From positions 1 to 11,381 of the forward strand of contig CAZMPG010000033.1 in assembly GCA_964568345.1 (NCBI GenBank): 11,381 nucleotides of DNA, given 5' to 3'. Below are positions 1,878-8,298 of the stretch, piece by piece (the first letter of the stretch is position 1; each line of letters opens with the position of its first letter). The notes under the pieces are model-generated. The model had not been told where the DNA came from and ran no database searches. It worked only from the letters and a program-made list of their open reading frames with translations. Origin of the DNA: an uncultured Candidatus Saccharibacteria bacterium (GTDB lineage Bacteria; Patescibacteriota; Minisyncoccia; Phycocordibacterales; UBA12088). A program made the position numbers and the translations under genes.

Positions 1878-2098
1878 CATGAATTAAGTATGCCATTCAA
1901 AATAAACACTACAATTACCGTGGCATGATCGTATAGTTCCACTCCCCATGGGACTCGTCACGCATGATGTTGACCTTGGCAAGCTCCTCATCTGATACTT
2001 TGATACACGTCTCGTACGCACGCATGTCGAGCACTGCTTTCACCGTGAGGCCGGTGGTGGTTTTCGTGTTCCCGATCAAACTCACGATTGTTGCAACT

Positions 2099-2131
2099 GA
2101 ACACCCCTCGGCTATAAGCCGAGGGGTGTTC
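2099..2131. terminator. Perfect 15-bp stem / 3-nt loop hairpin at the prfA 3' end and the island boundary (U-tract-less terminator candidate)
   Basis: GAACACCCCTCGGCT-ATA-AGCCGAGGGGTGTTC. The right arm overlaps the prfA stop codon (TGA at 2132-2130 on the minus strand). No T-run follows on either strand. The element coincides with the GC jump between the island and the core. Confidence 0.4.
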
Positions 2132-3419: not shown

Positions 3420-3427
3420 GTGGCACT

Positions 3428-3456
3428 ACTGTACCAGAGCGGAGAGCTGAGCGCAA
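3428..3456 (-). promoter_or_regulatory. Candidate promoter of rpmE-prfA (near-leaderless)
   Basis: On the minus strand, TTGCGC (plus 3456-3451) is followed by a 17-nt spacer and TACAGT (plus 3433-3428). The rpmE ATG starts 8 nt after the -10. No SD is present. Confidence 0.4.
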
Positions 3457-3463
3457 GGGTTAC

Positions 3464-3640
3464 GAGTGAAAAGAGGAAAGAAGATGGCGCGGGAGTTTTC
3501 AGGCGTGGACGATGCGCGAGGCGGAGGTGGTGCAGACTGCTAGGCAGTGCTCACGCACTGCCTACCGTGCTCGCGCTTTGTTGCCTGTGTCTGGAAACTC
3601 CGTCGCTCGTTTCTTTCCTCTTTCTTCTTTTCACTTTTCT
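3464..3640. repeat. ~177-bp long imperfect palindrome (extended hairpin / MITE- or small-repeat-like element) between the transglycosylase stop and the rpmE promoter
   Basis: The outer arm GTGAAAAGAGGAAAGAAG (3466-3483) matches the reverse complement of 3611-3634 (CTTTCCTCTTTCTTCTTTTCAC), with a 7-nt indel. Inner segments also pair: GCGCGGGAGTTTTCAGG with CCTGTGTCTGGAAACTCCGTCGC, and GCGCGAG with CTCGCGC. The apex is a perfect 10-bp stem, TAGGCAGTGC-tcac-GCACTGCCTA (3541-3564), centred at 3552. Confidence 0.5.
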
Positions 3641-3641
3641 C

Positions 3642-5066
3642 TCACTCACCCAACCGCTTGAGCGTATCAATTTGCTTTTGGAAGTATGCCGCGTGGCCCA
3701 TGACGCCGTCACCGTAGAACGCGTACGCGGGGTTGCTCGCATTGCCCCAGCCGGCGAAGTAGCGGAGCGCAGCGAGGCGCTCCGCCTCGTACGTGCCCGC
3801 ACCGGCGCCGTTCTCCTTCATGAGGGTTGCTGCGGCGATGAATGCATCCTGGTTGTCCCACGGGTTCGAAGGGCCCTGCTTGCCGCGGATTACGCGGAGG
3901 CGGTCTGCCTCAGCACGGTATATCCACGGCCCTGCCCAGAACGTGTCCCAACCGAGCGACCGCGCGGTGTTGCCGCAGTCGCCGGTCACCGTGTTCACGT
4001 AGCCGCCGTAGCACGCCCACGTTGAGGGGATAAACTGCGCTGGCCCCATTGCCCCGCCCCACCCGTAGCTCGGTTTTGCGGAGACCGGCATCGTGTCGGG
4101 GTTGAGCCCGAGGTTCTTGGTGATGACCGCAAAGAGTGGCCGATCGCGCGTCGGATGCATGTCTGCCTTCCAGGATCCGTTGCCAAGGAATTCGCCGAGT
4201 CGCGTCTCCTGCTTCAAGACACCGAGGATGAGTGCGGGTCGTATACCGGTCTTTTGAGACGCGAACGTGGCGAATTCGATAGCATCACCGAGGTTGATGG
4301 CCGCGGAGCCGCGGAGCTCGAAGAGCTCGGAGCGTATCTGTGCCGCGCTCTGCTCATTGGCGGCGATGAGCTTTTGGTACCGCTGCTCTTCGCCCTTGGT
4401 AGAGGTGAGGATGCGCGCTTTCTCCTTCTCCTGATCTTTGAGGCGGCCTTGCTGGAGCACTCGGAGCGTTCGAAGCTCCTCCTCTGAAGCCTGGCGATCC
4501 TCGAGCACCGCTTTCGCGTCTGCATGCTCGCTTCGGAGCGCCACGAGCTCGTGGGTTGACTCCTGGAGCCCGGTCTTCACCGCGGCAAACGCATCAAATT
4601 CCTGGAAGAGGTCGGAGAACCGCTTCCCCGAGAGTGCAACCTCGACGAGCGAGAGTTGATCGAGCTCCGCGGTACGCCGCACAAGGCCGGCGAGCGAAGA
4701 GCGCTCTTGGTCTATTTCTTCGGTGAGCCTGAGGATAGAGGCCTCTTTATCAACGATGTCTGCCTCAAGGTTTGCGATGGCAACCTCCTGCGCCCGTATG
4801 GCGAGCTTCGCCTTCTTGATCTCTGCATCGAGGATTCCCATGTCACGCTCGAGCGTCACCCGCTCCCCCTGCTTCCCCTCCAGGAGCTTCTGCTGTTCCG
4901 CAATGAGCGACTCGAGGTGGGCAAGCTGTGCCTCCAGCTCTGCGCGCCGCGCCTGGATCTGGGCTTCGGTCGTCTGTGCGTGGAGCGGCTCCCTGCCGGA
5001 GACGCATGCAACCGCGAACACCATACCGAGCATCGCCCCACACAACACTACCGTACGAACGGACAT
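3642..5066 (-). CDS. Secreted coiled-coil protein with a C-terminal family-3 lytic transglycosylase (MltB/SLT_2-like) domain
   Basis: The signal peptide is MSVRTVVLCGAMLGMVFAVACVSG. A heptad-rich coiled-coil region of about 230 aa follows (EAQIQARRAELEAQLAHLESLIAEQQKLLE…). The C-terminal domain has LKQETRLGEF (catalytic Glu context) and PSYGWGGAMGPAQFIPSTW, which resembles the MltB SWAGAMGQxQFMPS motif. The start is taken at ATG 5066 (residue 19 of the track ORF) because the signal peptide begins there and a -10 lies just upstream. Confidence 0.8.
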   Translation of the reverse strand: MSVRTVVLCGAMLGMVFAVACVSGREPLHAQTTEAQIQARRAELEAQLAHLESLIAEQQKLLEGKQGERVTLERDMGILDAEIKKAKLAIRAQEVAIANLEADIVDKEASILRLTEEIDQERSSLAGLVRRTAELDQLSLVEVALSGKRFSDLFQEFDAFAAVKTGLQESTHELVALRSEHADAKAVLEDRQASEEELRTLRVLQQGRLKDQEKEKARILTSTKGEEQRYQKLIAANEQSAAQIRSELFELRGSAAINLGDAIEFATFASQKTGIRPALILGVLKQETRLGEFLGNGSWKADMHPTRDRPLFAVITKNLGLNPDTMPVSAKPSYGWGGAMGPAQFIPSTWACYGGYVNTVTGDCGNTARSLGWDTFWAGPWIYRAEADRLRVIRGKQGPSNPWDNQDAFIAAATLMKENGAGAGTYEAERLAALRYFAGWGNASNPAYAFYGDGVMGHAAYFQKQIDTLKRLGE

Positions 5067-7178: not shown

Positions 7179-7484
7179 CTATGAAGCGCGCTGCGTGAGG
7201 GTGAGGAGCGCCTCGAACGAATCGTCCGGCGCGGCTTTGTTGCGCTTCTCGTGGCCACACGCGACGCAGCGGTGCGTGATGGTCCGCCCGTCGCCGCAAA
7301 GCTCAATCGCCACAGGCTCCATCATGCCGCTGCAGCGCGCGAGCCGATCGCCCGGGAACACATCCACATGCCTGCTCCACAGGCATGTGGGGCAGTGGTT
7401 CGTATACCCGTTCCCAACCACTGCCCCGCCGCAGTGGCCGCAGATAAAGTCTTCGCGGGTGCGGGTGAAGCGGGGGGTTGGCAT
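7179..7484 (-). CDS. RNHCP-domain zinc-ribbon protein (uncharacterised family)
   Basis: FICGHCGGAVVGNGYTNHCPTCLWSRHVD contains the eponymous RNHCP motif (here TNHCP) plus CxxC pairs (CGHC, CPTC, CVAC). The ATG at 7484 lies 4 nt after the rdgB stop, suggesting coupling. The track start at 7538 would overlap rdgB by 50 nt. Confidence 0.7.
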   Translation of the reverse strand: MPTPRFTRTREDFICGHCGGAVVGNGYTNHCPTCLWSRHVDVFPGDRLARCSGMMEPVAIELCGDGRTITHRCVACGHEKRNKAAPDDSFEALLTLTQRAS

Positions 7485-7488
7485 ACGC

Positions 7489-8046
7489 CTACGCACGTGC
7501 CTCCGCGCTTTGGTGCAAAAACGTCCGCAATTTCTCAACCGCGATACGCCTCATGCTCACGCTGTTCTTTTCAGTGAACGTCATCTCAGCAAATGTCCGA
7601 TCGTGCCCATCAGGCTGGAAGATCACGTCCCAGCCGAAACCCGACACCCCCGCCCGGACGGGCACGATAGTGCCGGGAACCACACCCTCAAAAAACGCTA
7701 TGTCGTCTCGAGACCTAGCATACCCGATGATCGTCTTTGCCTCTGCCCTCCTATTGCCCAGTCTCTCGACTATGTCCACGAGGCCGCCGGTGCCAATAGT
7801 GGCGAGGAACCACTTGATGAGCGGGCCCGGCAGACCCTTGAGGCTCTCGAGGTAGAGCGAGGTGTCCTCGATGATGCATGCGCCGTCCCGGTGGCGCAGT
7901 GCCTCGAGCAGCTTCGCCCGGACCACGTTTCTCGCGTCCACGTCCTGGATCTCTGGCAGGTCAATATCCACCTGTTCAACCTCGCCGCCGAGTATAGCCG
8001 CTACCTCCTCGAACTTATTCCGATTGCCGGTGATAAAGGAGAGCAT
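7489..8046 (-). CDS. rdgB: Non-canonical purine NTP pyrophosphatase (RdgB/Ham1 ITPase family)
   Basis: LSFITGNRNKFEEV is the family N-terminal signature. The protein is 185 aa. Other family features include FAEMTFTEKNSVSMRRIAVEKL. Confidence 0.85.
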   Translation of the reverse strand: MLSFITGNRNKFEEVAAILGGEVEQVDIDLPEIQDVDARNVVRAKLLEALRHRDGACIIEDTSLYLESLKGLPGPLIKWFLATIGTGGLVDIVERLGNRRAEAKTIIGYARSRDDIAFFEGVVPGTIVPVRAGVSGFGWDVIFQPDGHDRTFAEMTFTEKNSVSMRRIAVEKLRTFLHQSAEARA

Positions 8047-8057
8047 GGGATGGAGCA

Positions 8058-8210
8058 GTGGACGTTACAGGACTCGATGCCTACCGCATCAGTACACCTT
8101 GTGGCTCGTCTGGTTCGTGCTGCGGCACTCCCCAACAAGGCTCACAAGGTTTTCGAGTCCGCGCGACGCTTTTCTGCGAAAAGCTGCGCGTAACGTCCGC
8201 AGCTCGTCGC
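8058..8210 (-). other. Degenerate tRNA-Val-derived copy / recombination scar, bounded by a 20-nt perfect direct repeat of the tRNA 3' end
   Basis: 8058-8077 GTGGACGTTACAGGACTCGA is identical to 8226-8245, which is the tRNA-Val 3' acceptor/T-stem. 8187-8204 (GCGCGTAACGTCCGCAGC) resembles the tRNA 5' end (GAGCTAAACGTCCGCAAC). On the minus strand the copy reads GGACGTT-AC-GCGC…GCGC…CATCGAGTCCTGTAACGTCCA, with about 80 extra nt and no intact anticodon arm. A plus-orientation T-arm-like GGTTTTCGAGTCC is also present at 8149-8161. Confidence 0.4.
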
Positions 8211-8226
8211 TTCGCTGCCTCGCTGT

Positions 8227-8298
8227 GGACGTTACAGGACTCGAACCTGTGACCTCTCCCGTGTGAAGGGAACGCTCTACCAGCTGAGCTAAACGTCC
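8227..8298 (-). tRNA. tRNA-Val (anticodon CAC)
   Basis: Minus strand: GGACGTT TA GCTC AGCTGTA GAGC G TTCCC TTCACAC GGGAG AGGTC ACAGG TTCGAGT CCTGT AACGTCC A. All four stems pair and the T-loop is TTCGAGT. The anticodon loop carries U33 and A37 around CAC. The tRNA is 72 nt, with CCA not encoded. The D-loop is 7 nt with a single G where GG18-19 is usual. Confidence 0.85.

Follow-up and report, generated by a model that had tools for sequence, protein, structure and literature searches.

What is a 177-bp imperfect palindrome doing between two bacterial genes, and how did it come to lie there? The palindrome occupies positions 3464–3640 of an 11,381-nt contig (~60% G+C), analysed here over its whole length and referred to as the window. 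Homologues of the proteins encoded in the window come from metagenome bins of Patescibacteria (Parcubacteria/Paceibacterota), for which, to our knowledge, little has been published on non-coding or mobile DNA.

Genomic context

The gene order on the minus strand is L25/Ctc (5822–5154), a CwlO/SLT-like peptidoglycan hydrolase of 492 aa (5120–3642), the palindrome, rpmE (3419–3162), and prfA (3134–2130); both neighbours of the palindrome are on the minus strand, and the first-pass annotation had correctly placed it between two co-directional genes. The rpmE product is an 85-aa L31 protein without cysteines (type B; Pfam Ribosomal_L31, E 4e-25). The upstream neighbour had been named a transglycosylase. 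This name retains weak backing from Pfam, in the form of a sub-threshold SLT_2 match (19 bits vs the cut-off of 24.3). In their sources, some homologues are called CwlO-like peptidoglycan hydrolase and others lytic (murein) transglycosylase B; the former designation is the safer one. The C-terminus of the hydrolase (…QIDTLKRLGE*) stops at the same point as in the orthologues. The palindrome begins 1–2 nt past the hydrolase stop codon (TGA, 3644–3642, minus strand) and ends 9 nt before the predicted −35 hexamer of rpmE.

Anatomy and authenticity of the palindrome

The palindrome forms 76 pairs on the plus strand across 3458–3642. The outer arm nearest to rpmE, GTGAAAAGAGGAAAGAAG (3466–3483, plus strand), is polypurine on the plus strand and gives a U/C-rich tract in minus-strand RNA, and the outer arm nearest to the hydrolase gene (3612–3641, plus strand) is polypyrimidine on the plus strand (TTCTTTCCTCTTTCTTCTTTTCACTTTTCT). 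The hydrolase-proximal outer arm pairs in two registers because it contains a 7-nt internal duplication. The partner of GTGAAAAGAGGAAAGAAG is found at 3617–3634 (minus strand) with two mismatches, and the third register of the pattern is at 3624–3641; in the window, the outer-arm pattern has three matches vs 0.01 expected by chance. The repeat search returned arms of 33 nt (3470–3502/3591–3623; 79% complementary) and of 20 nt (3465–3484/3616–3635; 90% complementary). At the apex, 10 bp pair without mismatch around a loop of 4 nt, TAGGCAGTGC-TCAC-GCACTGCCTA (3541–3564). This apical hairpin is unique in the window, and a 9-nt near-repeat, AGGTGGTGC (~3525–3533), permits an alternative apical pairing on the plus strand. 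Among the indels that distinguish the arms are the 7-nt duplication already mentioned and, on the rpmE side, a surplus of ~17 nt close to the apex. Everything that the first-pass annotation had said of the sequence itself, including the palindrome, outer arm, apex, and indels, is correct.

The palindrome is short and non-coding: only one frame is open throughout its 177 nt, and the translation of this frame has no relatives. Within the rpmE-proximal arm, the plus strand has a Shine–Dalgarno-like GAGG followed, after 7 nt, by an ATG (3484) and a 19-codon open reading frame, MAREFSGVDDARGGGGADC (3473–3543); the other arm has ACG where this arm has the ATG. A mini-ORF of 27 aa also starts from a GTG at 3634 on the minus strand. 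Both mini-ORFs were taken as chance occurrences, having no relatives and being buried in the stem.

Logan assemblies of other sequencing runs supplied three contigs in which the spacer sequence is identical to that of the window. Since the sequence is the same in four independent assemblies and its symmetry is imperfect, an assembly artefact or fold-back was ruled out. One of the Logan contigs (L003) ends inside the outer arm at ~3628. Apart from these identical copies from the same strain, no homologue of the palindrome was found.

Orthologous junctions and the predicted rpmE promoter

Orthologous junctions were reached via homologues of the hydrolase. Three of them (L005, L006, and L127), distant from the window at 68–71% protein identity, have the same order of L25, hydrolase, rpmE, and prfA. 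In these relatives, the spacer from the hydrolase stop to the rpmE ATG measures ~41 nt (L005 and L127) or 53 nt (L006), vs 222 nt in the window, and contains only the promoter described below. The extra DNA of the window corresponds approximately to the palindrome alone, filling the distance from the TGA to 9 nt before the −35 hexamer. Comparison of orthologous intergenic regions, which the first-pass annotation had proposed, shows that the palindrome is missing from relatives; given their spacers of 41–53 nt, as against 222 nt here, the palindrome is, on this alignment of junctions, a lineage-specific insertion, or an inverted duplication that arose locally, in a spacer otherwise kept to a minimum.

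Three further junctions from another lineage (L125, L126, and L132) carry at the same place an unrelated filler of 455 nt with its own hairpins, and the hydrolase–rpmE spacer is therefore evidently tolerant of insertions. This 455-nt spacer (1596–2049 in L125, 1574–2027 in L132, and the same in L126) contains a 12-bp hairpin without mismatches as well as an inverted repeat of 14 nt that is 93% complementary, has a fold z-score of −2.7, and gave no match in Rfam.

The junctions also define a short conserved stretch before rpmE. An alignment of five orthologues, comprising the window (3428–3456), L005, L006, L125, and L127, shows an invariant cTTGnnn, 17 nt, TnTGnTAnnnT, and 8–11 nt to the ATG, without a Shine–Dalgarno sequence. 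From this conservation, the stretch is predicted to represent the −35 and extended −10 elements of an rpmE promoter. In the window, the predicted −35 hexamer is TTGCGC (3456–3451, minus strand), its cTTG being invariant in all five, and, read in the direction of the genes, follows the palindrome after 9 nt; the predicted extended −10 element, TGGTACAGT (3428–3436, minus strand; −10 hexamer, 3433–3428), is 8 nt from the ATG (3419). A generic promoter scan did not flag this promoter because TTGCGC matches the consensus at only three of six positions. As the conserved promoter is downstream of the palindrome, rpmE would have a promoter of its own past the element. The short distance to the ATG suggests, as far as the aligned sequences can indicate, that the rpmE mRNA is leaderless or nearly leaderless across this Paceibacterota clade; a literature search on leaderless promoters in Patescibacteria/CPR returned nothing relevant. 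The −10 heptamer of the window, TACAGTA, is symmetric, reading TACTGT on the plus strand (3427–3432), and this symmetry is missing in four of four orthologues without the palindrome.

Search for further copies

The first-pass annotation had suggested a MITE or other small repeat element, which predicts further copies. No second copy of the palindrome is present within the 11,381-nt window. Distant-setting blastn against phages and plasmids gave only 31–51-nt matches with E ≥ 0.2. In JGI metagenomes, the apex with any loop had four matches, all of which are unrelated A+T-rich terminator hairpins. Viral contigs had no match to the mid-stem pattern and three to a 19-mer, the latter in G+C-rich contigs with ≤28 nt alike and attributable to chance. 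Across genome contigs, the low-complexity outer-arm pattern GTGAAAAGARGAAAGARGA had at least 118 single chance matches in unrelated phyla, and BLASTN of the palindrome against all fetched loci aligned only the 20–40-nt purine tract. The translation of the open frame was also used as a query, a search that would detect spurious ORFs called over other copies; a word-indexed search of predicted proteins gave nothing, and the match from exhaustive HMMER, a 780-aa repeat protein aligned in five stretches at 29% identity, was rejected as spurious. Terminal inverted repeats are present as the 18–20-nt outer arms, 90% complementary, but these are low-complexity purine runs, and no target-site duplication was found in any register (flanks, ...GAGTGAGAGAAAA and TCGTAACCC...). 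A full-text literature search for MITEs in Patescibacteria found nothing relevant.

The repeat-family suggestion thus draws positive support from the presence/absence pattern alone, with one copy only in all collections searched and none in the orthologous spacers; a MITE family for the palindrome is neither shown nor excluded. In form, the palindrome resembles Correia/NEMIS (Neisseria), ERIC (enterobacteria), and RUP (pneumococcus) elements, being a non-coding element of 100–200 nt that is an imperfect palindrome as a whole, located in a transcribed spacer by a gene end, present or absent among related genomes, and expected to form, once transcribed, a long RNA duplex of the sort that RNase III typically cleaves. 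High copy number within a genome is a defining property of these families, as are target-site duplications for Correia and RUP, whereas the palindrome has one known copy, no visible duplication, and no sequence similarity to anything in the collections searched.

Two weak hints of mobility are the break of L003 in the outer arm and a nearby transposase fragment of the ISAzo13 family, which is located downstream of prfA where relatives have rpsB–tsf. The fragment represents the C-terminal ~60 aa of a DDE transposase (~1918–2100, minus strand) directly after prfA and is followed by a 45-nt A+T-rich stretch. Its homologues, found in many metagenomes, are all stand-alone fragments of 44–104 aa with ≤73% identity, an unusual pattern if the fragment were merely what is left of a dead IS. 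Derivation of the palindrome as a MITE from this neighbour was considered and dropped, as the homologues are only fragments and no full-length IS with ends was recovered; also, the presumed A+T-rich IS end (~1868–1917) is unlike the palindrome arms. At the break of synteny with relatives (prfA–rpsB–tsf), an inverted repeat (2096–2134), whose 18-bp stem is free of mismatches and closed by a loop of 3 nt, contains the prfA stop (TGA, 2132–2130) and has no U-tract after it; Logan contig L001 ends within this inverted repeat, 7 nt beyond prfA.

Elsewhere in the window, pieces of the tRNA-Val gene (8225–8298, minus strand), the only intact tRNA found by ARAGORN, recur a short way downstream, within the ORF 7195–8193. 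The pieces (8055–8077 and 8182–8206) comprise 23 nt of the 3' end (96% identical) and 25 nt of the 5' part (80%), respectively, at different offsets, and look like an att site or a pseudo-tRNA remnant.

Folding and strand asymmetry

The hairpin structure is real and strongly non-random. Folded as RNA, 221 nt containing the palindrome reach −109.9 kcal/mol on the plus strand (z, −6.8) and −89.1 kcal/mol on the minus strand (z, −5.2), with none of 200 dinucleotide shuffles folding as well; as DNA, 193 nt give z-scores of −7.8 (plus) and −6.4 (minus), and again no shuffle reached the observed energies. The comparison with shuffled controls that had been proposed at the outset is thus passed by a wide margin (z, −5.2 to −7.8). 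On the minus strand, i.e. the gene strand, a 200-nt window over the palindrome folds with −77.7 kcal/mol, ~0.6 SD better than the average of −71 ± 11 for the whole window. The most stable 200-nt fold of the contig is found elsewhere (7226–7450; −111 kcal/mol, minus strand; G+C, 0.66), inside a 332-aa ORF without a Pfam match, and is probably a composition effect.

The two strands are not equivalent. The same 193 nt as RNA fold with −102 kcal/mol on the plus strand vs −75.8 kcal/mol on the minus strand, and along the whole stem the plus strand forms 12 G·U pairs vs one for the minus strand (two-sided binomial estimate, ~0.003). In a strand-neutral alignment of the arms, all eight transition mismatches are of the plus-strand wobble type and none is of the opposite type. 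The plus strand, on which folding is better, is antisense to all nearby genes. The one-sided G·U bias possibly reflects selection on a plus-strand RNA or single-stranded DNA, or possibly a C-to-T mutation bias on the plus strand. The palindrome region is G+T-rich on the plus strand. Examined for a replication-strand mutation bias, skews at four-fold sites mostly track gene orientation, with a residual GC skew of ~0 and a residual AT skew of ~−0.15, and a T excess remains on the plus strand after codon bias is averaged out.

Possible roles of the palindrome

We tentatively favour the reading of the palindrome as an inserted palindromic element that acts as a terminator or insulator of the A-tract/stem/U-tract type. 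For both its origin and its part in termination or insulation, we infer the following course from structure and position. A MITE-like element, short, palindromic, and without coding function, or else an old inverted duplication, would have entered a spacer usually of 40–50 nt, between the hydrolase stop and the rpmE promoter. As polymerase leaves the hydrolase gene, the RNA would fold into a long stem with a purine-rich tract paired with a U/C-rich tract at its base, and this layout of A-tract, G+C stem, and U-tract would be that of a two-way intrinsic terminator. Transcription may then stop or pause at the stem, or the stem may serve as a long double-stranded substrate for RNase III, for which a stem of 60–76 pairs would be an obvious target. 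The upstream L25–hydrolase unit would thereby be separated from the rpmE–prfA unit, and read-through polymerases would be kept off the leaderless rpmE promoter. Ending, pausing, or processing transcripts from the L25–hydrolase unit is the most economical function that we can assign to the palindrome.

The likeness to two-way intrinsic terminators extends to the A-rich tract, G+C-rich stem, and U-rich tract on either strand, to the location directly after a stop codon, and to the resemblance of the outer arms to the Band_7 terminator. Read on either strand, the outer arms supply a purine run at the 5' side and a U/C run at the 3' side of a G+C-rich stem made up of several segments. The tracts after the inner G+C-rich stem are U/C-rich on both strands (AUCUUCUUUCCUCUUUUCAC on the minus and GUUUCUUUCCUCUUUCUUCUUUUCACUUUUCUCUC on the plus strand). 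The Band_7 terminator (1832–1867) is the only predicted terminator-like site after a gene end in the window, and its style, AAGAAAGAAAAG, a 16-bp stem, and UUCUUUCUUG, is that of the outer arms of the palindrome. Unlike such terminators, however, the palindrome has ~60–76 pairs instead of 5–20, several-fold more than needed, C residues break up its U-tracts, and the flanking genes are co-directional, not convergent. Further counter-evidence is that relatives do without any terminator at this junction, and that the gene strand folds only slightly better than the window average, the antisense strand folding much better. The inserted origin has the mobile DNA nearby in its favour and, against it, the lack of a visible target-site duplication and of a second copy in the collections searched. 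A scan with a simple terminator consensus did not call the site. Of the options first envisaged, a complex terminator/insulator upstream of the rpmE promoter fits the anatomy best, and the promoter is indeed downstream and conserved in relatives.

It is also possible, though doubtful, that the palindrome is neutral selfish or junk DNA, a decaying MITE or a template-switching inverted duplication sitting without use in a tolerant spacer. Relatives with the same gene order and no palindrome, the unrelated 455-nt filler in the same spacer of another lineage, arms decayed to ~79–90% complementarity with indels, the IS remnant 1.3 kb away, and the break of L003 at ~3628 in the outer arm, as can happen at repeats, are all consistent with such an origin. 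It is weakened by the lack of a second copy in any collection searched and of a target-site duplication, and by terminal repeats that are low-complexity purine runs; moreover, the one-sided mismatches (12 G·U vs 1) are unlike what unbiased decay predicts.

A function on the plus strand is unlikely. The palindrome would then belong to a structured RNA of ~200 nt whose divergent transcription sets out from the symmetric −10 of rpmE, or its hairpin would terminate such transcription before the hydrolase gene. The more stable plus-strand fold and the G·U excess noted above argue in this direction, as do a long U-rich run after the stem on the plus strand, the TACTGT (3427–3432), which would put a transcription start (~3440) ~20–25 nt before the hairpin, and the absence of the −10 symmetry from all four orthologues without the palindrome. 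Against these stand the lack of a credible −35 element or TG motif on the plus strand, where the promoter scan found nothing, and the fact that a directional C-to-T bias on this strand would yield the same G·U excess; there are no homologues, hence no covariation, and one symmetric heptamer is a coincidence with n = 1. That the G·U pattern was itself selected, in a divergent hairpin RNA of ~200 nt with its own U-rich tail or in a terminator shielding the hydrolase gene from divergent promoter noise, seems rather improbable; the former would be a lineage-specific antisense or divergent small RNA of a reduced-genome bacterium. The proposal of a conserved structured ncRNA is unsupported, as no Rfam family and no homologue, hence no covariation, was found.

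Very improbable is an element that works as DNA, its cruciform or single-strand hairpin being recognised by a recombinase, transposase, or regulator, with the apex GGCAGTGC-N4-GCACTGCC as an operator. In its favour are the mismatch-free 10-bp inverted repeat of the apex and the good folding of both DNA strands. On the other side, the window has no gene for an integrase, TnpA, Rep, or a reverse transcriptase, the ends are unlike the R'/R'' boxes of attC, and the apex recurs four times in JGI metagenomes as unrelated A+T-rich terminator hairpins. Hairpins of the attC, IS200, and retron kinds were each rejected, with no integrase, TnpA, or reverse transcriptase in the window and with ends that do not fit.

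A cis-regulatory rpmE leader is barely credible and close to refuted: the palindrome is highly structured and upstream of rpmE, as are the leader of E. coli rpmE, which is autoregulated via its 5' UTR, and the L31 leaders of Rfam, for which autoregulation has been proposed, but the conserved promoter lies between the palindrome and the ATG, leaving a leader of 0–4 nt and placing the palindrome upstream of the promoter and not in a 5' UTR, the spacers of the orthologues are too short to contain a leader, and no covariance model of Rfam, L31 leaders included, matched either at its gathering score or with E allowed to reach 10 (matches far below threshold to plant miRNA-precursor models reflect the generic hairpin shape and were discarded).

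Implications

The palindrome belongs with palindromic intergenic insertions and oversized terminator-like hairpins. The stakes are modest, for it would be a one-off curiosity unless many copies came to light, in which case it would found a new MITE family. The predicted rpmE promoter, 8–11 nt from the ATG, is a by-product of the analysis that is perhaps more generally useful than the palindrome. Still, a 177-bp palindrome that fits precisely into the space from one gene's stop codon to a promoter adjoining the next start codon indicates that such compact genomes continue to acquire and keep sizeable non-coding structures, and it may offer a simple test case for the insulator action of such structures.
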